The position numbers and the translations under genes are program-made. 64,000 bases of DNA, taken from assembly GCA_017442305.1 (NCBI GenBank), contig JAFRZY010000006.1, forward strand, positions 41,538 to 105,537, given 5' to 3'. Under the pieces are notes generated by a model. That model had not been told where the DNA came from. It searched no databases and saw only the letters and a program-made list of their open reading frames with translations. Numbering within the stretch: position 1 is the stretch's first letter; every line of letters begins with the position of its first letter. Origin of the DNA: Bacilli bacterium. Its GTDB lineage: Bacteria; Bacillota_I; Bacilli_A; RF39; UBA660. Below are positions 2,856 through 38,364 of the stretch, piece by piece.

Positions 2856-3188
2856 CTATTCTTTAGGCAAATCAATATTAGAAATTGCCCCTAAATCATA
2901 TGTTTTATATCCTAAGTTTTCTAATATATCGCTTGCTATTTTACTGCGATTTCCACTTTTACAATAAACAAATATTAGTTTTTCTTTGTCTAGATCAACA
3001 TCTTCATCTATTTCATCAAACGGAATATTTATAGCCCCTACTAAATGTAAAGATTCATATTCAGCTGGAGTTCTTACATCTACTATTATATGATCATTTT
3101 CATGCATTAACTTATTTAAATCAGGCTCTTCTATTTTTGTACATCCGACTAAAATAAAAATAATTAATATTAACAATATTTTTTTCAT
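2856..3188 (-). CDS. rhodanese-domain lipoprotein
   Basis: Signal peptide with lipobox LVGC. Rhodanese active-site loop YCKSGNRS. Confidence 0.75.
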   Translation of the reverse strand: MKKILLILIIFILVGCTKIEEPDLNKLMHENDHIIVDVRTPAEYESLHLVGAINIPFDEIDEDVDLDKEKLIFVYCKSGNRSKIASDILENLGYKTYDLGAISNIDLPKE

Positions 3189-3784: not shown

Positions 3785-4669
3785 TTAATGATGATGATGT
3801 TTTATTGAACCCATCTTTGGCGGTTTACAATCTTTTTCTAAACATTCTTCTCCAGTTAGCTCATATTCAATGGTTGTATGAAAAACACCGTGTTCACTAA
3901 GCTCTTGTTTTACTGTTTCTTTTAATTTTTTAGAAAGTTTATTTACAACAATGTGCATAGTTGCATAGTTATTAACACCATCAATTGTCCATATATGAAT
4001 ATGATGAATATCTTTTATACCTTTAATAGCTAATAAATGTTTTTTTAAATCACTAATGCTTATTCCATCGGGAATTTTTTCTAAGAAAATATCGACAACA
4101 TTCTTTAAGTTTTTTAAAGCATTAATTAAAATAAAAATTGCCACCCCAATCGAAAGAAGGGAATCAATAATTTTAATATCGGTAAAACGCATTATTATAG
4201 CACCCACTAAAACAATCGCCCAATTTAAAACATCTTCTAGCATATGCAAATTTACAGATTTTTGATTTAAAGAATCTCCATCTTTTGTGTAATAAGATGC
4301 TAATAAGTTTACTATTATTCCCACTATTGCTAAGATAATCATCCCATTATAATTTATTGGAATTGGAAAAAATAATCTTTTAACTGCGTTAATTATAACT
4401 AAAATAGACCCTACTATTAAAATGCTTGTAGTAATAACACTACCAATTATTGAATATCTTACATAGCCATAAGTATATATATCATCCGGTTTCTTTTTGC
4501 TTATTCTTTCTAAAACAAAAGAAATAAAAATGCTTAAACAATCCCCTAAATCATGAATTGCATCAGATAATATCGCTACACTGTTAGTTATTGCTCCACC
4601 TATAAACTCAAAAATTGAAAACAATAAATTTAAAATAAACGCTATTAATATATTTTTTTCTGATTTCAT
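3785..4669 (-). CDS. cation diffusion facilitator (CDF) family metal efflux transporter
   Basis: Six TM helices, cytoplasmic C-terminal domain, His-rich tail (HHHH). CDF signature region SDAIHDLGDCLSIFISF. Confidence 0.85.
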   Translation of the reverse strand: MKSEKNILIAFILNLLFSIFEFIGGAITNSVAILSDAIHDLGDCLSIFISFVLERISKKKPDDIYTYGYVRYSIIGSVITTSILIVGSILVIINAVKRLFFPIPINYNGMIILAIVGIIVNLLASYYTKDGDSLNQKSVNLHMLEDVLNWAIVLVGAIIMRFTDIKIIDSLLSIGVAIFILINALKNLKNVVDIFLEKIPDGISISDLKKHLLAIKGIKDIHHIHIWTIDGVNNYATMHIVVNKLSKKLKETVKQELSEHGVFHTTIEYELTGEECLEKDCKPPKMGSIKHHHH

Positions 4670-4679
4670 AAATACTCCT

Positions 4680-5672
4680 TTATCTTGTTATATTATCTTT
4701 TTTATTTAATTCACGCTCATAAACAGTTTTTAAAAAGTCTACTATATTACTATTGCTTAAATAATCGGTATCTATTTCATCAAAAATTGCACTAGAATTA
4801 TTAAGTCTTCTAATAGCTAAAAACAAATCTTTTATTACTTCTAAATTAGGATAGATATTTTCTAACAACTTTATTTTAGCAATATTATTTTGAGCTTTAG
4901 CTTGTATATATATTGTAGTGATATAAACTAATTTTTTATATAGTTCAAATTTATTTTCGCCACTTAATTTATACGTTTCTAATAATAATCCTTTTAGTTC
5001 TTCGTCATTTTTTATTTCGATTTCCTGTTCATTAATCATAACAACGTAATGACAATCATCAGGATTTTCTCCTTTAAAAACGAATTTAATATTATCTTCA
5101 TAATATTCTCGAAGTAAGAAAATCATACTTACTATATCTTTATTTTTTGGTAAAGATTTAACCTCAGCATAAAACGTATATTTTTGATTAATTAATTCTT
5201 TTTCTTCATCCGTATTTGCTTCACTTAATTCTTTTAAATAAGTCATCATGATTAAATATATACGATTATTACCACCCATAATATAACATTTGCCATCTGA
5301 ATCGCGATTTAATTCAATTGGTGTATCATGCGTTGCGTAATTAGGTGATTGATTTTTTTGTTTTAGAGTTTCACTATAATAAGAAGGATTTTGATAAAAC
5401 ATCCGAACATTTTCATCTCCCCGCTTACTTTTTATAAATGACTCTAAAAAAGTTAAATCTTCGTATGTAGGATGTGACGTTCCAACAATATCTTTTAAAC
5501 AAAATGGTAATATAAAAGCTTGTGTATAAACACTTGAATATAAGAAATCTTTTTCCTCTTTGGTAAGTTCAAAAGCATAAGACTTATTTACTTTTGCAAA
5601 TTCTTTAGGTAAATTTTCTAAATCTATTCCTACATGATTTAAAAATTTTAATTTTGTTTCACTTATTTCCAT
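4680..5672 (-). CDS. hypothetical protein (330 aa), co-operonic with the DUF3841-like gene
   Basis: Long ORF with a 15-nt gap to the upstream gene. No confident family. Weak DGxxR-like GGNNR segment. Confidence 0.5.
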   Translation of the reverse strand: MEISETKLKFLNHVGIDLENLPKEFAKVNKSYAFELTKEEKDFLYSSVYTQAFILPFCLKDIVGTSHPTYEDLTFLESFIKSKRGDENVRMFYQNPSYYSETLKQKNQSPNYATHDTPIELNRDSDGKCYIMGGNNRIYLIMMTYLKELSEANTDEEKELINQKYTFYAEVKSLPKNKDIVSMIFLLREYYEDNIKFVFKGENPDDCHYVVMINEQEIEIKNDEELKGLLLETYKLSGENKFELYKKLVYITTIYIQAKAQNNIAKIKLLENIYPNLEVIKDLFLAIRRLNNSSAIFDEIDTDYLSNSNIVDFLKTVYERELNKKDNITR

Positions 5673-6522: not shown

Positions 6523-6594
6523 ATAAGAACATTAATAGAATATCAAATTTTTTACTAAATTGCAAGTAGTAATAACTATCAAAAAGAATTAGAC

Positions 6595-6909
6595 TTAATC
6601 TAATTCTTTTTTTGACTTATTCATTTTAGTTAAGGCTTGATTTATTTTTTGTTCTTCAGCTTCTTCTAAAGAATACCAACCATTATTAAACGCTAACTCA
6701 TAAGCTTCTCTAGCCTTATTTTTTGTCTCATTAAAAATTTTAAACACCTCTTTAAATAAGTATTTATTACTCATCTCATCAATTGCTATAGAATAATTAT
6801 TACTAACATTTTTTAATGTTAATAAAACATCATTTAAAATATCTTTATCATTCATTTCTTTAGTTGATGGTACTTCTTTCATTTTACATTCTATTTTTTT
6901 ATTATTCAT
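6595..6909 (-). CDS. spore coat protein F-like (Coat_F domain)
   Basis: Pattern D.L...L...K.....Y..A..E..N..L...F..........A...Y......GWY, typical of the CotF/YraF family. Confidence 0.45.
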   Translation of the reverse strand: MNNKKIECKMKEVPSTKEMNDKDILNDVLLTLKNVSNNYSIAIDEMSNKYLFKEVFKIFNETKNKAREAYELAFNNGWYSLEEAEEQKINQALTKMNKSKKELD

Positions 6910-7209: not shown

Positions 7210-7473
7210 ATGGTGATTTTGATGGACTTAGATAAATTAATTAATAACGCAATTAATGACAATAGTTTAGTAAAAATAAATAGCAATATTTATTTAACTA
7301 AATATCAAATAGCAATACTAGATAGATTTCATATTGAATATAATAATTGTAGTGATATTAAAGAAATTTTATTTTTAATTGATGAATATTTGGAAAGTGA
7401 ATATGAAGAAGAATTAGATGAACTTGCCAAAAATTTACAGGAATTTAGTTACTATAACTTTACACATAAATAA
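7210..7473 (+). CDS. hypothetical protein (87 aa)
   Basis: ORF only. Confidence 0.3.
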   Translation: MVILMDLDKLINNAINDNSLVKINSNIYLTKYQIAILDRFHIEYNNCSDIKEILFLIDEYLESEYEEELDELAKNLQEFSYYNFTHK

Positions 7474-7538: not shown

Positions 7539-8258
7539 ATGGCTGAAAGTTTATATACAATTAAAAGAGATAGTATTTGTGTAGGAAAGGTTATTACAAA
7601 TTTTACAATTTTAGATAATAAACATAATTTACTTGGTAAACCTATGAGTTTAGGAGAATATTCAGAATGTAGAAGCATGCTTTTCGCTTCTAATGAAGGT
7701 GGATTTGCTGAAGACTTATTATACTCTACTCCACAATATCCTATATTTCGCGAATGTAATGATGTGGTCTGTAAGCAAGCTAAATTTATGATAATTGATC
7801 CTGTTAACATGGGAAAATTTCTAAAAGCAGTTGGATATGAAGAAGATGTTGAATATTTAGATGTTGAAAGAATTAGAAATAGATACTTCAAAAGATTTTA
7901 TACCACAACTCACGCAGAAGAATTTGGAATGACTGAGGTTGATATTGATATTCAATTAGCTAATGAATTAAGTCAAATGAAAAATTTAACAGAAGAACAA
8001 ATTGCATGCTATAAAAGATTAAGAAAATTTCAAAACTTTTTTGGGTTAAGAAGTCAATACGAATATTCACAAGCTATTCAAGAAACTCCATTAACTGAAA
8101 TCAGTAAATTCTTTTTACCACCAGAGTATTTTGAAATACTAAGAAAATATGGAGATAGATCAATATTTGAATTATATTTTGGATATGCTGATAAAATGAA
8201 TTCATTTAAGCCTATTAAAGAAGAAGGTCCAATTAGAAGTTTAAAAAAATACAATTAA
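7539..8258 (+). CDS. hypothetical protein (239 aa)
   Basis: Good RBS AAAGGAG upstream of ATG. No recognisable family. Confidence 0.5.
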   Translation: MAESLYTIKRDSICVGKVITNFTILDNKHNLLGKPMSLGEYSECRSMLFASNEGGFAEDLLYSTPQYPIFRECNDVVCKQAKFMIIDPVNMGKFLKAVGYEEDVEYLDVERIRNRYFKRFYTTTHAEEFGMTEVDIDIQLANELSQMKNLTEEQIACYKRLRKFQNFFGLRSQYEYSQAIQETPLTEISKFFLPPEYFEILRKYGDRSIFELYFGYADKMNSFKPIKEEGPIRSLKKYN

Positions 8259-8280
8259 TATAATTAATTGTATTTTTTAT

Positions 8281-9354
8281 TTATTTTAAATAAGAATCTA
8301 ATGGTTTTACACGATATTTTGGATCATCCATTTGACTAGTAGGAATAAATCCTGGTTTAGCATTTATTACATCAGGAATTCTATTTACAATATCAGCACA
8401 TGTAAGTTCTACTGTACAAGGTCTATCTACTACGACGCTTGTATCTGGTTCTCCATAAACTGTCCATTCGTTTTTATCAAATACATCCGGCGCATATACT
8501 TTTCCAATACACTCTGCTTCTAAAATTATTCCTTCTTTTGTCTCCGCTTTAACTACAGCGCTCATACCAATTGCCAATCCAGCTTTAATATCCATTTGTA
8601 AAGTTTCTGAATGTAAATCCTCTTCATAAGTAATTGGAACACATTTTTGACTTATTGATTCAATTGTTAAATTTAATTTATCAGCTAACCATCCTACTGT
8701 ATTCCACATATATGATGGTAAAAATTCACGATTATTAATTAAATTATTTCTTTCTTCTGTACTAATATTATCAGCAGCAGCAACTTCCCTTTCGAATTCT
8801 TCTAAAGTTAAACCTGCGCCATGAGCTTTGGCAAGAGCAATACCATAGTCTTCTACATTATAAGAAGAACTTCCCTTTATTTTAGTTATACGATGAGTAC
8901 TTCCTGCTAAAACTGTGATTAAATTACCCCAGAAAATATCTTGATAACCACAACCAGTTATTGTACAGTTATTTGCTTTAGCAAGTAAATCTAATTCTTT
9001 GTGTAGCGTTGGATTACTATTACTTGAGAAGAATGCTTCTTCGCATGTTGTAATAGCATTTACTCCGTTACTTGCACATACTCTTAAAACATCTTCAATG
9101 TCATTTAATAAACTCATTGTTGTAACAATTGCGATGTCTGGTTTAGTATTTTCTAAAACTGTATTTAGATTCTCTACTAAATCAATTTTTACTCCTTTAT
9201 TATCGCCACCCATAACGTAAGCGATATCTTTTCCAATTACTTCTGGGTTAATATCAACTGCCCCTACTATTTCAGCCCCCTTTTCGTAAACATAACGCAT
9301 AGTATATTTACTCATTTTTCCACAACCAATTTGCACTACTTTAATCTTTGTCAT
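8281..9354 (-). CDS. NAD(P)-binding dehydrogenase with DapB-N-like Rossmann fold (amine dehydrogenase / 2,4-diaminopentanoate dehydrogenase-like)
   Basis: N-terminal [14 protein letters not shown] Rossmann motif; ~350 aa architecture like the Ord/Kdd amine dehydrogenase family. Overlaps the upstream AAA gene by 14 nt. Confidence 0.4.
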
Positions 9355-11200: not shown

Positions 11201-13090
11201 TTATTCCATTACTATTTCGTAAGGTGTATTTGTATCTATTCGACCATCTCCAGTAAATTTAACGTCTGCTTTTAAGTTAATTACAGGACGAACTTTACGA
11301 CTATCCCCGATTGTTGCATCATAATTTGAAATAGAACCATTTGCAGAAACATAATATACATATAACCCATCATCAAAATCACCTACATCAAGAAAGTAGC
11401 TAGGAGTGGATGTCCAAAACGCTTCGTTACTATATAAATAATGTGTTGCATTGGAAACTACTCCGCCAGCCATTAGTACTTCATCAGCAGTTAATAATCC
11501 TATAGGTTTATCTAATAGACCATTCCCTTTCCCTTCACTTTTTGTATATCTATCGCTCTTATTTGTACATATTAATTTTGGGGCTCTGTTTCGATAAATT
11601 CTAGTATATGGATTAAAGTATACTTCACTCCATCCACTTGAACTAGGATCGGTTATTTCATTGTAATGTTCATCCCAATATCGCCCGATTGATATTTCAC
11701 GGTCATTACAGAATATTCCATCTGCTATATATTTGCCATATGTTTCCTCCAAATTATCTTCGTACCATTTATCTACTACTCCTTTGATTATACTATCCAC
11801 TTGTATTCCGTTACCATCATCATATGTATATCCGACATATTTAGAATTATAATATCCAGTGTTATAAATCGCATCTGCGATTGTCGCTGTATGTGCTACA
11901 CCATTTGCTACAGGCGCTGTTCCATCATAAACAAGCCGGATTGTACCATCGCCATTAATTCTTACAATTCGCCAATACATTGGCATTTCCTCGACATATG
12001 TTACATCGTTTACCGTACTTTCTGATGCATAACTCCCAAATTTTACGTAATTATTGGTTGGCGCTCCTCTAAAATAATATGATATGCCTAAGTCGTCTTG
12101 GGCTTTATATAAACCAGCATCACTTGCAGTCGTGCCTTCACTAAATCCATTGCTTCCTTTTATAGTTTTTGCTGTTACATAATTCCCACTTGTTCCAAAA
12201 TTTGTTACTTCATATATAGTTTGACTTTCATATGTTGAACTGACGTTTTTTATTGTGTATTTTCCACATGTTTTCGTTCCATTTCTACATTCTTCCAATG
12301 TTGCTTGTGTTAGTGTCCCTGATAATGTATAATATCCGATTTCTTTATCAAATTTATATGTTGTTCCATACCAATAACTGTTTGATGTTCCGACACTTGT
12401 TGATGCTGCTGTTATCGTTGAGGCATCTCCTTCTGTCCATTCTGCACTTAAACTTGTTATGGCATCTGCTCCTCCATAGTTAGAAAGTATATCATATGCT
12501 AATGTGCCTTCTTTATATGGATTAAATATTCCCTGACCTATTGTTACACTGATTTTACTTCTAAATGTTTTATTTTGTTCACTGATTGGGGCATTTGCAT
12601 CTATCCAGATGCGTAATTCATATGTTACAGCATCATCTTCTGTTTCGTCTGATGCGCCTGCTAATGTGCCATATGCAAGTTTATTTGATTCATATGCTTC
12701 ACTTATTGTTGGCTCTGCATTTCCTTCAGCAGTTAGTAGTTTTATTTCTTCGTTTAACGCTACTTTAATTGCGCTTGCTTTAATTGCGTTAGTACTATCT
12801 CCTATACTTTCCAAATTTACTTGATAATCAACAGATGTACTACAGTTATTTGTTACTGTAAATTCGTATGGCGTTAGTTTCATTCCTTCGGTATCACTTA
12901 ACGGAAATTGATCAATTAATTCAATATCATTCTTTTCACCACTTAATGATATATCTAAACATCCTGATGAGATTACATTTTGATTTGTTTGAGTCTTTGT
13001 TACTAACCAGTATGCATATGTTACTCCGATTATTACTAGGAGTACTGCTACTATACTTATTACAGTGATTACTGTTTTTTTATTCTTCAT
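11201..13090 (-). CDS. large secreted protein with TasA/camelysin-type N-terminal signal region and a conserved C-terminal domain of unknown function (paralog of 62925-64000)
   Basis: N-terminus KK-hydrophobic-GVTYAYW...SSGCLDISLS parallels the B. subtilis TasA GGGTWAAF...ASGTLDLS SipW-type signal region. C-terminal ~300 aa (YYFRG...WRIVRINGDGTIRLVYDGT...GIFCNDREI...LICTNKSDRYT...GLLTADE...RPVINLK...PYEIV) is shared with the ORF at the window end. Confidence 0.6.
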   Translation of the reverse strand: MKNKKTVITVISIVAVLLVIIGVTYAYWLVTKTQTNQNVISSGCLDISLSGEKNDIELIDQFPLSDTEGMKLTPYEFTVTNNCSTSVDYQVNLESIGDSTNAIKASAIKVALNEEIKLLTAEGNAEPTISEAYESNKLAYGTLAGASDETEDDAVTYELRIWIDANAPISEQNKTFRSKISVTIGQGIFNPYKEGTLAYDILSNYGGADAITSLSAEWTEGDASTITAASTSVGTSNSYWYGTTYKFDKEIGYYTLSGTLTQATLEECRNGTKTCGKYTIKNVSSTYESQTIYEVTNFGTSGNYVTAKTIKGSNGFSEGTTASDAGLYKAQDDLGISYYFRGAPTNNYVKFGSYASESTVNDVTYVEEMPMYWRIVRINGDGTIRLVYDGTAPVANGVAHTATIADAIYNTGYYNSKYVGYTYDDGNGIQVDSIIKGVVDKWYEDNLEETYGKYIADGIFCNDREISIGRYWDEHYNEITDPSSSGWSEVYFNPYTRIYRNRAPKLICTNKSDRYTKSEGKGNGLLDKPIGLLTADEVLMAGGVVSNATHYLYSNEAFWTSTPSYFLDVGDFDDGLYVYYVSANGSISNYDATIGDSRKVRPVINLKADVKFTGDGRIDTNTPYEIVME

Positions 13091-33246: not shown

Positions 33247-34332
33247 ATGAAAATAAAAATTAATTTTTTAAAAATTTTACTTATAGCTATTTTACTCTGC
33301 GGATTTGCTTTTATTGCCAAAAAACTATTTATAACTGAAAGTTCATATAACAATGATGCTATAGCAATAATGAAAGAACTCAATATATATGACAAAGTAG
33401 ATCAAAACAAATACTCAAAAACTTTAGAAGAAATGCTTATTAATAATAGTTTTAATTCAAAATATGTGGATGTTTATACTGAAATTAATTTTGTAAATAA
33501 ATCTAATTTTCTAAATGTTGTCAACACTTTGCTAGAAAAAGAATATAGTGCCAGTGAAATTAATATGATACTTGCCAATTTAAGTGATAATAACATTGAT
33601 AATTTACTAGAATTAGAATATCTAAGTTTAGAAGATTTTTATTTAATAAAAAATTTAAATGTCCTAAAAATTAATGAATACAATCAATACAAAAAAGAAA
33701 ATAGTGTAACAACAGAAGAAGCGGTAACCCAAGTAAATATAGGACTTAATAATAAATACTATACAAATATTATAGAAGTAGAAAATCCTGATGATTTACT
33801 AGTATTGGTAAATAAATATCGAGCATTGCCTGCAGATTATATTCCAGAAGATTTAGTAAGTTTATCAAATGGTAGTCAATTCCAATTAAGACGCGTTGCT
33901 GCCGAAGCTTATGAAAAATTAATTGATTATGCTAGCGACAACGGTATTGAAGTTTTACCTTTTAGTGGATATCGATCATATAACACTCAGAAAGTTATTT
34001 ATAATAACCATGTTAATAACAATGGGCGTGATAGAGCTGATACGTACTCTGCTCGTCCAGGACACTCTGAACATCAATTAGGACTTGCAGTTGATATTCG
34101 TTCTAAAGATTACGAACTCAAAAGACTTACACCAGATGATGCTAAATGGATTAACGAAAATTGTAGTCAATTTGGATTTATTGTTCGCTACACAAAAGAA
34201 GATGAATTTATTACCGGGTATATGGAAGAAACTTGGCATTTAAGATATGTTGGCATTGAAGTAGCAAAAAAAGTAATGGATTTAGGAATCACTTACGACG
34301 AATACTATGATTTATATATTGAAAAACACTAA
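33247..34332 (+). CDS. D-alanyl-D-alanine carboxypeptidase, VanY/M15B family, membrane-anchored
   Basis: N-terminal TM. M15 motifs SGYRSYNTQ and PGHSEHQLGLAVDI. Confidence 0.8.
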   Translation: MKIKINFLKILLIAILLCGFAFIAKKLFITESSYNNDAIAIMKELNIYDKVDQNKYSKTLEEMLINNSFNSKYVDVYTEINFVNKSNFLNVVNTLLEKEYSASEINMILANLSDNNIDNLLELEYLSLEDFYLIKNLNVLKINEYNQYKKENSVTTEEAVTQVNIGLNNKYYTNIIEVENPDDLLVLVNKYRALPADYIPEDLVSLSNGSQFQLRRVAAEAYEKLIDYASDNGIEVLPFSGYRSYNTQKVIYNNHVNNNGRDRADTYSARPGHSEHQLGLAVDIRSKDYELKRLTPDDAKWINENCSQFGFIVRYTKEDEFITGYMEETWHLRYVGIEVAKKVMDLGITYDEYYDLYIEKH

Positions 34333-34360
34333 AAAAGGATTATTTACTAATCCTTTTTCT
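34331..34360. repeat. 30-bp direct repeat copy 1 (hairpin terminator AAAAAAGGATTATTTACTAATCCTTTTTCT)
   Basis: Identical 30-mer recurs at 35849-35878. Contains the AGGATTA/TAATCCT hairpin flanked by A- and T-tracts. Overlaps the stop of ORF 34347-34793. Confidence 0.8.
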
Positions 34361-34793
34361 CTAACTTTCTAATTAATTTCAAGCCAGAACTCTCTTTTGC
34401 CAACATAATTTCTATTTTTTTAAAACACTCATTTCTCGAATCGAACTTCAAACCCACCAATTCTTTTTCGCTTACCAAAAACATTTTTGAGATTAAACAA
34501 TCATGATAATGTTCTAATATATTTCCGTCCGCATCAATATGATCATGTGAATGGCCTTTTTCTGAATCAGATGAAACATAAACATCTAAAGTACCATCTG
34601 CTCTTTCTCTTACTGTATAATCAGTTTGCCCATATGTTCCTGAATTTCCATACGTTCTATTTCCATCATATCCTGGTTCAGATAATTCATCTCCATCTTC
34701 TTTTTCCCTAGCAGTTTCTATATTAGCGTCCCAAAACCATCCCATATTACTTATTCCTTTCTGATAACCATATATTTCTTGTATAAGAACCAT
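34347..34793 (-). CDS. hypothetical protein; C-terminus (EKKD-stop) encoded by the repeated terminator sequence
   Basis: ORF; probable real start at the internal Met MGWFWD (~34743). Last four codons and stop lie inside the 30-bp repeat, as pnp's do. Confidence 0.35.
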   Translation of the reverse strand: MVLIQEIYGYQKGISNMGWFWDANIETAREKEDGDELSEPGYDGNRTYGNSGTYGQTDYTVRERADGTLDVYVSSDSEKGHSHDHIDADGNILEHYHDCLISKMFLVSEKELVGLKFDSRNECFKKIEIMLAKESSGLKLIRKLEKKD

Positions 34794-35070
34794 ATAATTT
34801 ATTATTTTCTATTTTATAACCATAATCGGGTCCAAAATTAGGAATGTTAGGTTTCATATCTACAAAAAACATTTCTATATCGGTATATTTTAAATTATCG
34901 TTAACTGCATTTGCTAAAATTTCGTACTCATATTCTGTTATATTTGATAAATCAAAAATAAAATCTTTCTCATATTCATACTTAATTATTGGCACAATTA
35001 TTGTTTCAACTTTTTGTGTTTTTGAATTTTCTATTTCTATTTGTGCATTCATAAAATCACCCTTTCGCAA
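34747..35070 (-). CDS. hypothetical protein (107 aa)
   Basis: ORF only. Confidence 0.3.
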   Translation of the reverse strand: MRKGDFMNAQIEIENSKTQKVETIIVPIIKYEYEKDFIFDLSNITEYEYEILANAVNDNLKYTDIEMFFVDMKPNIPNFGPDYGYKIENNKLYGSYTRNIWLSERNK

Positions 35071-35072
35071 AT

Positions 35073-35717
35073 TTAAATTTTATCTCTTATTCTACAATAT
35101 TCTTCTTGTGAAATTTCTAAACCTAGATCTAATCGTTTATTAAAATCAATGTGATGAAATAAATAATCTTTACTATACTTTGATATATAATTTATTCCCC
35201 AAAATTTTTCTAGTGGAAAAAAACAAATTGAATTAACAAAGCTATAATCCGCAACACATAACTCTCTATATTCTTTTTCAATTATATCAAATAATTTCAT
35301 ATCAGACAGTATTTCTGTAGCATTTAATATTATTCTACAAGATTGTAGCTCTGCTTGTCTTTCTATCGGATTAACAAAATACATATCTTTACTATATAAT
35401 TTGTTTTCTTTTAATTTTTTTTCTAATTGAGATGCGTCTACCAAAATCTTTGTTTCAAAGTTATTGTGACCAGTAATCATTTTTTCTTCTTGTTTTATAT
35501 GTTCTATTTCATGAAGTAAAACTCTTATTATATGTAAATTTAAATATAATAACTTGTGAAAATAGTCACTACCAAATAAACGTTTTGAACAATCGACTCC
35601 TATAGCAAATATTAATTTTAGATAATTAATATATATTGTTTTTGTATCTATAGAATAACGTGCAAGAAAATCACTTTTGTAATTAGATATAATTATATTA
35701 TTGACATATAAATTCAA
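35073..35717 (-). CDS. hypothetical protein with HExxH zinc-metallopeptidase motif (ImmA/SprT-like?)
   Basis: Motif LLHEIEHIKQ. No other family evidence. Confidence 0.35.
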   Translation of the reverse strand: MNLYVNNIIISNYKSDFLARYSIDTKTIYINYLKLIFAIGVDCSKRLFGSDYFHKLLYLNLHIIRVLLHEIEHIKQEEKMITGHNNFETKILVDASQLEKKLKENKLYSKDMYFVNPIERQAELQSCRIILNATEILSDMKLFDIIEKEYRELCVADYSFVNSICFFPLEKFWGINYISKYSKDYLFHHIDFNKRLDLGLEISQEEYCRIRDKI

Positions 35718-35848
35718 ATTATATTTAGAAACAAAAAATTCTAATATATATCTAATAATGTTTTCATCGATTATTTTTTCTTTTTTTGTAAATTCATAAA
35801 CTAACTTAACTATATTCTCTATAATACACCACCCATATTAATTAACGC

Positions 35849-35878
35849 AAAAAAGGATTATTTACTAATCCTTTTTCT
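35849..35878. repeat. 30-bp direct repeat copy 2 (pnp 3' end plus terminator hairpin)
   Basis: Identical to 34331-34360. pnp stop codon (35865-35867) lies inside the hairpin. Confidence 0.8.
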
Positions 35879-38045
35879 TTTTATCTTTCTTTTCTTTTTT
35901 GTCTTCTTTTTCTGATTTTGCAGGTTTTGGTAAAGCTTCTTTACGAGATAAGTTTAATCTTCCACGATTATCATATCCTAAAGCCTTAACAACTATTTCA
36001 TCTCCAATTTTAAATAAGTCACTAACTTTTTCTACTCTTTCATAAGCTAATTGAGATACATGTACTAACCCTTCGCAATTAGGCCATAATTCAACAAAGC
36101 AACCAAATTCTTCTACTTTAACAACCTTTCCAGTATAAATAGTTCCAGGTTCAACAACTTTTACTATATCTTCAATCATCTTACGAGTCTTAGCAATAAT
36201 ACTAGCATCAGTATGATAAATAATTACTCTACCATCATCTTCTAAATCAACTTTTACTGCATCCTTATCATTTACTGCTGTAACATTACTAGCTTCTAAA
36301 ATAATTTTAGTAATCATTTCTCCGCCACGGCCAATTACATCTTTAATTTTTTCAGGATCAATGTGGAATACATCAATCTTAGGTGCATATTGACTTAATT
36401 CTTTTCTTGGTTCTGGAATAGCAGTAGTCATAACATCAAGTATTTCTAAACGGGCTTTTTTAGCTTGCGCTAAGGCTTCTTTTAATATTGCTTTAGTTAC
36501 ACCTTTAATTTTAATATCCATTTGAAGCGCTGTAATACCGCTTGCTGTACCCGCAACTTTAAAGTCCATGTCTCCCATGTGATCTTCTAATCCTTGAATA
36601 TCAGTTAGAATTGTATATTTTTTACCATTTTGAATTAATCCCATAGCAATACCTGCTACTGGAGCTTTAATTGGAACTCCTGCCGCCATAAGCGATAAAC
36701 AACCAGCACAAATAGTTGCTTGTGAACTAGAACCATTACTTTCTAGAATTTCACTAACTACACGAATTGTATATGGGAATTCATCTTCACTAGGAATTAC
36801 TTGAGCTAAAGCTCTTTCACCTAATGCTCCATGACCAATCTCTCTTCTTCCTGGTGAACCATATCTTCCTGTTTCACCAACAGAGAATGCAGGGAAATTA
36901 TAATGTAACATAAAACGTTTTGTATCTTCTAAACCTAGACCATCTAACACTTGGTGTTCACCAATAGCCCCTAAAGTTGTAGTCGCTAAACTTTGAGTTT
37001 CTCCTCTTGTAAATACTGCTGAACCGTGAGTGCGAGGAAGTAAGTCAACAAATGCTGAAAGCGGTCTTATTTCATCCATCTTTCTTCCATCTGGTCTAAC
37101 TTTTTTATCAGTTATTAATCTTCTTACTTCATTAGCTTCAATTAAATCAACAACCTTTTTTACTTGTTTTAATTTTTCTTCAGCATCCTCATCTTCTGCA
37201 TAAACTTCCGCAAAGTTTTCTAATGTTTGTTCTTTAACTTCATCAATACGAGCATATTTTGCTAATTTATCTTTGATTTGAATTGCTTCAAGCATATCTT
37301 TTGTAGCATAAGCTTCAACAGCTTCCTTAATTTCTGGATTAATTTCAGCAAGTGGGAGCTCAACTTTTTCTGCTCCAATTTCAGCAATAATTTTTTCTTG
37401 GAATTCACATAACATCTTTATGTGGTCATGTCCAAACATTAATGCTTCAAGCATATCCTTTTCACTAATTTCCTCAGCTCCAGCTTCAACCATGCAGATG
37501 GCATCTTTTGTTCCCGCTACTGTTAAATTAAGAACACTTTGTTCTAACTCTTCAGCTGTTGGATTAATCACAAACTTTTTACCAATTTTACCAACTACTA
37601 CACCAGCAACCGGACCATCGAATGGAATATTACTAATTCCTAAACATAGAGATGAACCAAATAACGCAGTCATAACTGGAGAGTTATTTTGGTCAACTGA
37701 TAGTACTGTGTTAATAACTTGAATTTCATTACGTAGGTTTTCATCAAACATTGGTCTAATTGGACGGTCAATAATACGAGCAGCTAATGTAGCTTCATCA
37801 CTAGGACGCCCTTCTCTTTTTATGAACCCTCCTGGAATTTTACCTACAGAATATAACTTTTCTTGATATAAAACTTGTAATGGAAAGAAATCTTGTGTTA
37901 CTTGATTTTTACCCATTACACATACAGATAATATTACTGTATCGCCATATCTAACTAAAACGGATCCATTAGTTTGTTTAGCAAGCTCTCCCGTTTCTAC
38001 AACTAATTCTCTTCCTAAGAAGTCAAACTTAAATACTTTCTTCAT
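35865..38045 (-). CDS. pnp: polynucleotide phosphorylase
   Basis: 726 aa; two RNase PH domains, KH and S1 domains. N-terminus [31 protein letters not shown]. Lys-rich C-terminal tail. Confidence 0.95.
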
Positions 38046-38094
38046 TTTCTACCTCCAATTTCTAAAATAAAAGACACTTAAAAACATTAAGTGC

Positions 38095-38364
38095 CTATTT
38101 TCTAATATTTAATTTTTCAATTAGTTCTCTGTAACTAACAACATCTTTATTTTTTAAGTAGTTTAATAATTTTCTTCTTCTACCAACTTTCATAAGTAAA
38201 CCTCTTTTTGAATGGAAGTCATGCTTATGTTCTTTTAGATGTTCTGTTAAATCATTAATTTCTTTTGTTAAAATTGCAATTTGAACTTCAGAACTTCCGC
38301 AGTCTTTTTCGTTTTTTGCAAATTCCTTAATGATTTTTGCTTTTTCTTCCTTTTGTAAAGCCAT
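38095..38364 (-). CDS. rpsO: 30S ribosomal protein S15
   Basis: 89 aa classical S15 ([48 protein letters not shown]). Confidence 0.95.

Follow-up and report, generated by a model that had tools for sequence, protein, structure and literature searches.

A probable old insertion of a three-gene operon at the pnp/VanY junction of uncultured Bacilli, with duplication of the pnp terminator

Integron cassettes carry attC sites with RYYYAAC and GTTRRRY motifs and work with intI and attI; the dif modules of Acinetobacter plasmids are Xer-dependent and have 11-6-11 arms. CIMEs, known from streptococci, are integrase-less, att-flanked elements derived from integrative elements. Their repeats are attL and attR sites that belong to a known family of integrases, with one att sequence found at every integration of related elements. 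Genes may also lie between direct repeats as the result of insertion with long target duplication, the mechanism of which is, to our knowledge, still unexplained. Such insertions were described for restriction–modification genes (Nobusato et al. 2000, Gene 259:99; Furuta, Abe & Kobayashi 2010, NAR, PMC2853133). An example from H. influenzae has a 46-bp repeat that overlaps 15 bp of HI0105, and the published criterion is a repeat of >30 bp together with a demonstrated empty site (PMC2853133). DNA breakage by the restriction–modification systems has been proposed as the driver of these insertions (PMC2853133). Here we analyse a locus in an uncultured Bacilli bacterium from the gut at which three small genes are bounded by copies of the end of pnp.

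The window (i.e. the whole 64-kb stretch of DNA analysed) contains one long perfect direct repeat only. The 30-mer AAAAAAGGATTATTTACTAATCCTTTTTCT is present in exactly two copies, R1 on the VanY side (34331–34360) and R2 on the pnp side (35849–35878), and no further copy was found in the window at up to three mismatches. The edges of identity are sharp (t at 34330 versus c at 35848, and c at 34361 versus t at 35879). The 30-mer had no exact match in the JGI metagenomes or IMG/VR. On the minus strand, R2 contains the pnp codons K-K-D and the TAG stop (35865–35867), and R1 contains the same K-K-D and TAG as the last three codons and stop (34347–34349) of an open reading frame, gene A. Relatives have an orthologue of the pnp-coding 5' part of the repeat, the K-rich end of pnp. 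Both copies form a hairpin of 11–12 bp, with arms AAAAAGGATTA/TAATCCTTTTT, that folds on both strands (34332–34358 in R1 and 35850–35876 in R2), with a dG of −9.5 to −12.9 kcal/mol and a z-score of −3.8 to −5.1 across the two strands. The hairpin and a T6 run stand at the 3' ends of pnp, gene A and VanY. From its fold and position, the repeat is predicted to be a bidirectional terminator hairpin, albeit one with only two G–C pairs in the stem, at which a terminator consensus scan made no call. An earlier note on this DNA had reported the pair of 30-mers at these positions and had placed a hairpin and the last codons and stop of pnp within it; the folding and the codon positions agree with both statements. 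The search for more copies that it proposed yielded none beyond these two in the 64-kb window and the JGI and IMG/VR exact scans. A dispersed hairpin element of the MITE or REP type was rejected as an identity for the repeat: it occurs only twice in 64 kb, and in other genomes the copies are restricted to cassette borders.

Three genes on the minus strand, in the order C, B and A, lie between the repeats. Upstream of them is pnp (35865–38045, minus strand), which encodes a polynucleotide phosphorylase of 726 aa and from whose 3' end the duplicated target sequence is derived. A gene for a VanY-family D-Ala-D-Ala carboxypeptidase (33247–34332, plus strand) converges with pnp and the cassette, and the first two bases of R1 belong to its stop codon. 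Gene C (35073–35822, 249 aa) encodes a zincin-like protein in which the motifs HExxHxxQ and NPxERxAE are invariant; its start is a conserved ATA codon (35822–35820) rather than the TTG at 35717. Gene B (34747–35052, 101 aa) encodes a small acidic protein with conserved YTDIEMFF and PNFGPDY motifs, is invariably located between C and A, and is known in one natural B–A fusion (P0021). Gene A (34347–34745, 132 aa) is conserved over its N-terminal ∼85 residues (SGTYGQSDYTVRER...GHSHDHID..GN...YHD; beta-rich by prediction), followed by a variable tail that is fused in frame to the pnp-derived codons in R1. A 148-aa version of A that extends to 34793 is an over-extension, and the 132-aa version is preferred. 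The junction between R2 and C (35823–35848, minus strand; GCGTTAATTAATATGGGTGGTGTATT) measures 26 nt up to the ATA start, contains only an SD-like GGTGGTG and leaves no room for a promoter, so the window cassette has none of its own. The first ∼12 nt of this junction are kept in all four of the four lineages that bear the pnp insertion. The cassette was found once only in the 64-kb window. A foreign base composition was considered and rejected (25% GC in the cassette versus 27.6% in the window). The three minus-strand open reading frames of the earlier note are thus real, with new limits for A, B and C; the frame that it placed at 34347–34793 does stop within R1 but has its 5' limit at 34745. 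Three gene models are corrected for annotation in this way, including the conserved ATA start.

C–B–A is a conserved operon, with this gene order, in related gut and rumen Bacilli, and the C family comprises at least 150 clusters. A word-indexed search for homologues of C returned its own cluster only, and the homologues were recovered by a full HMMER scan. In an alignment of 37 sequences, residues H103, E104, H107 and E153 are invariant or nearly so; the HExxH motif first noticed in the window is accordingly invariant across the family. The structural model of C (pLDDT 94.7) gave best Foldseek matches to selecase (4qhi and 4qhh, probabilities 0.97 and 0.92) and to phage SprT-like proteins (probability 0.99), all of them weak, with E-values of 0.05 or higher and TM-scores of 0.2–0.45. 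Searches of A, B and C against Pfam, PADLOC, PHROGs and NCBIfam gave nothing significant, in line with the initial impression of genes with no recognisable function, and their alignment profiles had no match among PDB sequences. A fold search with A returned only weak single-layer beta-sheet look-alikes; an HNH-like reading of its GHSHDH...GN...H pattern was considered and found no support. The model suggests that C is a zincin-like HExxH protein with putative metallopeptidase activity. Together, the three genes define a new conserved module of a zincin-like protein and two small partners that belongs to no curated family.

We then compared the pnp locus among related genomes. The insertion at pnp is common to two sister species, L011/L012 (pnp 95% identical at the amino acid level) and L120–123; the L120 species has a perfect 33-bp repeat and the other sister species a degraded one. 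Within the window species the cassette is fixed in every assembly, and no polymorphism with an empty or alternative site was found among at least seven assemblies. The dS values of C, B and A are 0.84–1.07 (0.42–1.74 in the flanking genes), and their dN/dS ratios are 0.16–0.36. Since dS lies within the range of the flanks and dN/dS is low, C, B and A appear to be old, vertically inherited, functional genes. Judged by these sequence comparisons, the cassette at the pnp locus is old and fixed, probably an insertion, and not recently mobile there. The nearest outgroups with pnp–VanY–PBP5 synteny, L022 and L032, lack C–B–A and have a DUF1653 gene in the slot, and in more distant relatives neither VanY nor C–B–A adjoins pnp. 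A clean empty site (i.e. pnp, a single repeat and VanY) was not found among the related genomes. A comparison of the region downstream of pnp, as the earlier note had suggested, therefore does show the cassette to be absent from outgroups, but with DUF1653 in its place and not as an empty-site allele.

Each lineage carries its own variant bases in the repeat, and carries them in both of its copies: GAAAAAGG in the window, AAATAAGG in L120 and L124, and TAGTT..AACTAA in L011. This points to concerted evolution, and we infer gene conversion between 30-bp repeats that lie 1.5 kb apart. Two further comparisons point to exchange of content. L124 and L120 are 95% identical in their flanks, and L124 contains gene B only, at 78% nucleotide identity; homology between the two ends 3–12 nt from the inner edges of the repeats. 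In L106 and L109, the C–B–A coding block, at 92.6% identity, has been exchanged between unrelated flanks. Occasional recombination or gene conversion probably keeps R1 equal to R2, and the same short homology would permit deletion or exchange of what lies between them. An exact 1548-bp Logan contig was considered as evidence of a circular form and rejected, being a k=31 graph break at the 30-bp repeat.

Among related Bacilli of gut and rumen, the operon occupies no fewer than seven different sites on the chromosome. Two to three of the other sites have flanking duplications of their own, which are site-specific: 26 bp in L019–21 and 52 bp in L112, where the 3' coding end of a sigma-factor gene forms the right copy. 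The repeats at three sites (AGGATTAGTAAATAATCCT / AGTAGTAGCAATACTACT / ...GGAGCATTTTAATTAATGCTC) are unrelated and share no common core, and the length of the duplication ranges from 18 to 52 bp across events. Successive gene blocks in L015 and L112, neighbouring genes included, are bounded by a single hairpin in three copies, and for the neighbouring HTH gene the comparison of single copy with flanking copy holds between L015 and L019. At other sites, C is preceded by a TTGACA-N17-TATAAT-like promoter. Homologues of A end natively at about ...IRKL(K/R) or ..LIKK and lack KKD, whereas A of the window and of L011 reads into the repeat. No flanking repeats were detected at the Cse60, peptidase M18/Fic, PBP/T2SSE (L111 group) and SpoIVB sites. 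In a third clade (L111–118), with a LemA/T2SSE context, the operon adjoins the same downstream gene with no repeat, so that either block may be the one that moved there.

What we observe here, namely the structure and age of the locus, the target origin of its repeat, the homogenization of the copies and the duplications at other sites, is probably best read as an ancient insertion of C–B–A into the pnp/VanY junction with a long target duplication. The repeat is taken to be duplicated target DNA because the cassette is promoterless and A runs into pnp-derived codons; the orthologous K-rich end of pnp and the A homologues that end without KKD support the same reading. An insertion is indicated by the presence of the same operon at other sites with other duplications and by outgroups that lack the cassette. 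Because these outgroups have another gene in the slot, the event could also have been a substitution and not a pure insertion. Counted against the reading are the lack of a clean empty site, a repeat of 30 bp that is barely as long as the duplications termed long in the literature, the four sites without a repeat and the repeat-less L111–118. Of the earlier suggestion of an insertion at, or a duplication of, the pnp/VanY terminator, the insertion and the origin of the repeat from the pnp 3' end and terminator are retained, with the qualification that the element is not recently mobile at this locus.

A possible sequence of events is as follows. In an ancestor of at least three sister species, before they diverged, one copy of C–B–A would have entered the very short convergent junction between pnp and VanY without a promoter, stop codon or terminator of its own. 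Its insertion would have duplicated ∼30 bp of target, comprising the last three to four codons and the stop of pnp and the shared bidirectional terminator, either through a staggered break with fill-in or through single-crossover integration of a circle that carried a copy of the target. The inserted operon would have brought no recombinase. Today, R2 would still terminate pnp, and R1 would terminate both the cassette and VanY and encode the end of protein A. Expression of C–B–A may then depend only on read-through of the weak R2 hairpin and on the weak ATA start codon.

A transposon or insertion sequence was rejected as the agent of this event: there is no transposase, there are no terminal inverted repeats inside the direct repeats, and the duplication has no fixed length (18–52 bp). 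Precomputed Pfam hits show no integrase or transposase within ∼6 kb of the cassette, nor did 10 further open reading frames of the window, and C, B and A have no matches to mobility families. Around the operon at its various sites, no integrase, transposase or Xer-like gene was found within 6–8 kb.

Another route to the same arrangement is a homology-mediated, Campbell-type single crossover of a circle that already carried the pnp end and terminator, to which we give a low probability. Such a circle might, for example, have come from a related strain, as a cassette cut out of the same site there and acquired by transformation. The final structure would equal that of insertion with long target duplication, the duplication arising from homologous recombination and not from a staggered break. 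A repeat near the minimum length for RecA-type recombination, repeat lengths that vary by site, the signs of recombination at or near the repeats and the swap of the C–B–A block in L106/L109 all agree with a crossover. However, homologous recombination works very poorly on 30 bp, the first joining of a target copy to the cassette is left unexplained, and the present sequence gives no distinction from insertion with target duplication. The three mechanisms named in the earlier note (an att-like site, a target-site duplication and a homology-mediated insertion) are not fully separable by sequence alone.

Alternatively, the repeats could be att-like sites of an integrase-less cassette, mobilized by a recombinase that is encoded elsewhere and recognizes the hairpin structure rather than its sequence. 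This too seems unlikely. The repeats are perfect, hairpin-forming and homogenized within each lineage, homology between L124 and L120 breaks at them with differing content in between, the triple hairpins of L015 and L112 resemble a short array, and the cassette is as promoterless as those of integrons. Yet the three sites share no common core and differ in repeat length; one L112 copy is no more than the coding end of a sigma factor gene; the gene searches within 6–8 kb at all sites and in the 10 window frames gave no candidate recombinase; the assemblies of the species show no empty or alternative site; and neither the JGI metagenomes nor IMG/VR contain the 30-mer. The att-like site put forward in the earlier note is improbable as a sequence-specific site, because the repeats differ completely between sites; no integrase or transposase was seen within ∼6 kb of the cassette or among the 10 further window frames. 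A bolder variant, which we consider speculative and rather improbable, is that C–B–A is a recombinase-less selfish cassette, akin to restriction–modification or toxin–antitoxin modules, that repeatedly invades convergent junctions in gut Bacilli, directed by the hairpin or terminator and duplicating the terminator each time. If true, this would be an integron-like shuffling of genes with ordinary intrinsic terminators as recombination sites, building short terminator-bounded arrays (L015 and L112) that are later exchanged via the repeats.

It is very improbable that no insertion occurred, i.e. that C–B–A is ancestral at pnp, its terminator was later copied to the other end, and the outgroups lost C–B–A and gained DUF1653. 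The missing empty site and a cassette as old as its flanks by dS would fit such a history, but the operon is found at seven or more sites in related genomes, the promoter seen elsewhere has been lost here with the last gene fused to pnp codons, distant relatives have neither VanY nor C–B–A beside pnp, and copying 30 bp into a dissimilar site would in any case be an insertion-type event. Finally, a chance resemblance of two terminators, or the collapsed assembly that the earlier note named as a refutation, has a negligible probability and both were rejected: although both copies are A/T-rich terminator-like hairpins and assemblies made with k=31 are interrupted at the repeat, 100 shuffles produced no match, an orthologous repeat pair is present in two further species, and k141 and scaffolded assemblies have an identical layout, which recurs in independent assemblies (MEGAHIT and others) of five or more samples, among them a contig of 216 kb.

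Among proteins with a described fold, C resembles the selecase (minigluzincin) and SprT-like zincins in its invariant HExxH on a long helix and its conserved downstream Glu (in NPxERxAE). It differs in being twice their size, in its extra helical domains and in its constant partners B and A, and it has no sequence match in Pfam, NCBIfam or PDB.

As a genetic unit, the cassette is like integron cassettes and dif modules in that promoterless blocks lie between imperfect palindromes, form short arrays (L015 and L112) and swap their content (L124 versus L120). Here, however, neither intI nor a dedicated Xer partner is found nearby, and RYYYAAC/GTTRRRY motifs and 11-6-11 arms are absent; the hairpins, which differ by site, are predicted intrinsic terminators of the ordinary kind or even coding sequence. 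With CIMEs it shares a short block without recombination genes and identical direct repeats that restore the 3' end of a housekeeping gene. The repeats nevertheless differ per site, and an integrase was not found in the tested window frames or in the flanks of the related loci.

The likeness to insertions with long target duplication is broader. In both cases, few genes with no integrase or transposase lie between direct repeats of tens of bp, and these repeats (i) are duplicated target DNA, often over the 3' end of a neighbouring gene, and unique in the genome (judged for the window repeat within 64 kb at up to three mismatches and by the JGI and IMG/VR scans), (ii) vary in length between events and (iii) are able to support amplification or loss. 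Differences concern the repeat length, which in the window is exactly 30 bp and thus at the published threshold rather than above it (33 bp in L120 and 52 bp in L112), and the empty site, which is part of the published criterion and was not found for pnp/VanY. The cargo there is restriction–modification, whereas here it is an uncharacterized zincin-like protein and two small proteins. Because the module recurs at new sites, it is a candidate selfish or conflict system, a function that we infer only. Our reading would extend long target duplication from restriction–modification genes, mostly of Proteobacteria, to an unrelated operon in uncultured gut and rumen Bacilli. A literature search turned up no relevant earlier account of terminator duplication. 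It also differs from the described cases in what was duplicated: the segment is predicted to be a working terminator with copies in concerted evolution, which suggests that a terminator pair can be recruited from such a duplication and kept identical over species-level divergence.

The perfect 30-bp repeat AAAAAAGGATTATTTACTAATCCTTTTTCT occurs at exactly two sites in the window, next to the VanY gene (R1, 34331–34360) and next to pnp (R2, 35849–35878), as the earlier note had reported. No third copy exists in the 64-kb window with up to three mismatches allowed, none of 100 dinucleotide-preserving shuffles matched the 30-mer, and the window has no other direct repeat that is both long and perfect; identity breaks off sharply at each edge of the copies. 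Either strand of the repeat folds into a hairpin of 11–12 bp with a T-run (dG -9.5 to -12.9 kcal/mol, z -3.8 to -5.1); its stem has only two G–C pairs, and a consensus terminator scan did not call it. On the minus strand, R2 carries the pnp codons K-K-D and the pnp TAG, R1 carries K-K-D and the TAG of A, the final cassette gene, and the first bases of R1 fall within the stop codon of the convergent VanY gene. Folding and codon reading thus bear out the description of the repeat as a hairpin joined to the last codons and stop of pnp and to the stop of the last ORF, and the observation is confirmed.

The repeat is not a collapsed assembly artefact, which had been named as a possible refutation: the same arrangement, with repeat copies identical throughout, is found by exact-protein look-ups in independent assemblies from five or more samples, a 216-kb MEGAHIT contig among them. 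Logan contigs (k=31) end precisely at the 30–33-bp repeat (L010, 1548 bp; L122, 1540 bp; L123, 1538 bp; and the end of L003), and L010 comprises the cassette and both repeat copies. Such cassette-only contigs are open to misreading as a circular element. A stand-alone contig that starts and ends with the repeat is no sign of a circle here: its ends are a graph property of k=31 against a 30–33-bp repeat.

The three small minus-strand ORFs and the HExxH motif described earlier stand, but the ORF limits were corrected using gene callers and homologues: A spans 34347–34745 (132 aa) and B spans 34747–35052 (101 aa). The frame of C (the HExxH protein) is open up to 35834 with no in-frame ATG, and automatic gene calls shorten C to 214 or 209 aa. 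Homologue N-termini (M-E-x-I-x-K/R-L-V/I-Y) align to the ATA codon at 35822–35820, so C is placed at 35073–35822 with an ATA start, 4 nt ahead of which lies a Shine–Dalgarno-like GGTGGTG. In the sister species L011, C has the same non-canonical ATA start (about 7228–7230), likewise 4 nt after a GGTGGTG; in a third species, L120, an ATG lies two codons before that position. The gap between R2 and the start of C is just 26 nt, too short to hold a promoter; where the operon lies elsewhere, a TTGACA-N17-TATAAT-like promoter precedes it. Within the window species, one strain variant (L006, 8994–9311) carries a 12-nt in-frame duplication in B (IIVP twice, 105 aa). In one same-species assembly (L001, 8619–10797), pnp is called as two ORFs of 274 and 381 aa, which is a frameshift, gap or assembly error. 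Elsewhere in the window, a 10-bp hairpin with a T-run lies between rpsO and pnp (38072–38096, minus strand), at the position of the classical rpsO terminator/pnp leader structure, and two coding segments 51.7 kb apart (11458–11982 and 63158–63676, ∼78% identical) are probably paralogous genes.

Proteins A, B and C have no match in Pfam, PADLOC, PHROGs, NCBIfam or PDB sequences. Homologues of C form at least 150 clusters in a full HMMER scan, and an alignment of 37 sequences yields the motifs HExxHxxQ ... NPxERxAE, in which H103, H107, Q110, E153 and A156 are invariant and E104, P151 and R154 nearly so. In fold searches, the confident AlphaFold model of C (pLDDT 94.7) matched best to the minigluzincin selecase and to phage SprT-like or lethal-factor-like proteins (probabilities 0.9–0.99, with weak E-values). 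From these motifs and the fold matches of the model, C is predicted to be, and probably is, a zincin-type metallopeptidase. In A, a highly conserved N-terminal region of ∼85 residues, predicted to be beta-rich and including a GHSHDHID cluster, is followed by a variable tail; B is a small acidic protein. A metagenome protein (P0021, 178 aa), in which B and A are naturally fused in one polypeptide, suggests that the two act together. The gene order C-B-A is constant at all loci examined.

In its 5' half, the repeat corresponds to the orthologous lysine-rich pnp end, and pnp terminators overlapping the last codons are common in relatives (e.g. L025 and L028). Homologues of A terminate at ...IRKL(K/R) or ...LIKK; A runs on into the repeat in the window (EKKD*) and in L011 (KLKGD*), and the stop of A in L120 is a TAA within the repeat, in a frame that differs from that of pnp. 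At a different site (L112) the operon is flanked by a 52-bp repeat, of which the right copy coincides with the 3' coding end of a sigma-factor gene (sigma-70 family, region 4), and the left copy is a non-coding duplicate that forms the terminator of the upstream gene. On this sequence evidence, the repeat is read as duplicated target DNA. The pnp-orthologous half and the extension of A into the repeat support the general reading already proposed, namely an insertion that would have duplicated the pnp end and its terminator.

The same pnp|C-B-A|VanY layout is found in the sister species represented by L011/L012, whose pnp is 95% identical to that of the window species at the amino acid level (C 48%, B 77%, A 60%, VanY 66%, PBP5 81%). 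Between these two species, dS is 1.02 for C, 0.84 for B and 1.07 for A, inside the span of values for the genes on either side (rpsO 0.42, pnp 0.66, VanY 1.13, PBP5 1.74), and dN/dS of the three genes is 0.16–0.36; from these values we infer that the cassette dates back to the speciation and that purifying selection acts on its genes. In a third species (L120–123) the layout recurs with a repeat of 33 bp, also perfect (AAAAAAATAAGGATTAGTAAATAATCCTTTTTT). C-B-A is absent from the next relatives with pnp-VanY-PBP5 synteny or similar pnp, L022 (82%) and L032 (79%), in which the start codon (ATG) of a DUF1653 gene (8192–8413 and from about 1620, respectively; Pfam E = 2e-18) shares bases with the pnp stop codon. 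What follows pnp thus varies between genomes, and in more distant relatives other genes occupy this position. Comparison of this region in relatives, as proposed earlier, thus revealed presence and absence of the cassette but no clean empty pnp/VanY site among the relatives compared. Presence in sister species and absence from the next relatives indicate an old, fixed insertion that is a derived trait of a small clade.

We aligned eight repeat copies from four lineages. Both copies share a lineage state in the window (GAAAAAGG) and in L120 and L124 (AAATAAGG); in L011 they share TAGTT..AACTAA and have otherwise diverged, with drift that includes a compensatory GGG/CCC stem change. Since dS between species is near 1, copy identities of 30/30 and 33/33 do not stem from independent evolution; as judged from the alignment, the copies must have undergone recombination or gene conversion with each other, or else been duplicated anew. 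In L124, which is closely related to L120, VanY is 95% identical to that of L120, and B alone (78% nucleotide identity to L120 B) lies between repeats at 77–109 and 429–461 that differ by one G-to-A change. This B (104 aa) enters the repeat in a third frame, and L124/L120 homology ends within 3–12 nt of the inner repeat edges. What lies between the repeats is thus replaced at a higher rate than the sequence around them.

Besides the pnp/VanY position of the window clade, C-B-A is found between a TPM-domain or PBP gene and a T2SSE ATPase gene, between GNAT and sigma-factor genes, after Cse60, between a peptidase M18 gene and Fic, and before RecD2, UvrB or SpoIVB, usually ahead of a convergent gene. 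Two loci with unrelated flanks (L106, 4138–5673; L109, 463–1997) share 92.6% nucleotide identity over exactly the C-B-A coding block, and homology stops within 5–7 nt of the ORFs, so the block was exchanged or moved as a unit. Positions 1–49 of L109 repeat a stretch inside uvrB (2535–2583), downstream of the cassette; this is either a further long target duplication or an artefact of the contig end.

Smith–Waterman alignment of the 300 nt preceding C against the 200 nt that follow A gave scores above the highest shuffle in the window (66 against 32), L120 (66, 29), L124 (61, 36), L011 (38, 31), L019 (53, 40), L015 (48, 33) and L112 (111, 40), and was not significant at the remaining C-B-A sites. 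In a human-gut species (L015–L018), the same terminator hairpin occurs three times (18–21-bp copies at 5344–5361, 6636–6653 and 8348–8365), flanking both C-B-A and a 400-aa HTH_3 (RstR-like) gene that is bordered by the extra copy and missing in the related L019–L021. L112 also has three copies, two of 52 bp around C-B-A (2617–2668 and 4323–4374) and one of 25 bp farther upstream (1214–1238) bordering a two-gene block (a 280-aa gene and a GNAT gene); serial target duplications do not fully explain this layout. Other gene-flanking repeats are few in an exhaustive scan of 1.33 Mb of loci, and are mainly 18–20-bp matches, paralogue leaders and repeats in distant G+C-rich genomes. In L024, two paralogous genes each have the same ∼100-nt leader with a G9-run hairpin GGGGGGGGGTATAAACCCTC (2975–3090 and 6528–6640).

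The earlier note also considered an att-like recombination site. A specific att site is not supported: the repeats are unrelated in sequence from site to site and measure anywhere from 18 to 52 bp, and no integrase or transposase was found near any C-B-A site or among the window ORFs tested, all of which argues against a sequence-specific att site and a transposase. Active mobility at the pnp/VanY locus is likewise not supported. A possible route is a break at or around the terminator palindrome, whose repair would capture the operon as the staggered end is filled in; alternatively, a circle bearing a target copy could have integrated by a single crossover. Insertions that duplicate the terminator might preferentially survive because the upstream gene is still terminated and the convergent downstream gene still shielded. 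Present-day R1 and R2 may both work as terminators, with C-B-A expressed via read-through and the weak ATA start.

The pattern matches 'insertion with long target duplication', described for restriction-modification genes, where cases include 46-bp repeats overlapping the 3' end of a neighbouring gene and where amplification and loss via the long repeats have been proposed (PMC2853133). In contrast to those cases, the cargo here is not a set of restriction-modification genes but an uncharacterised, widely scattered three-gene module.
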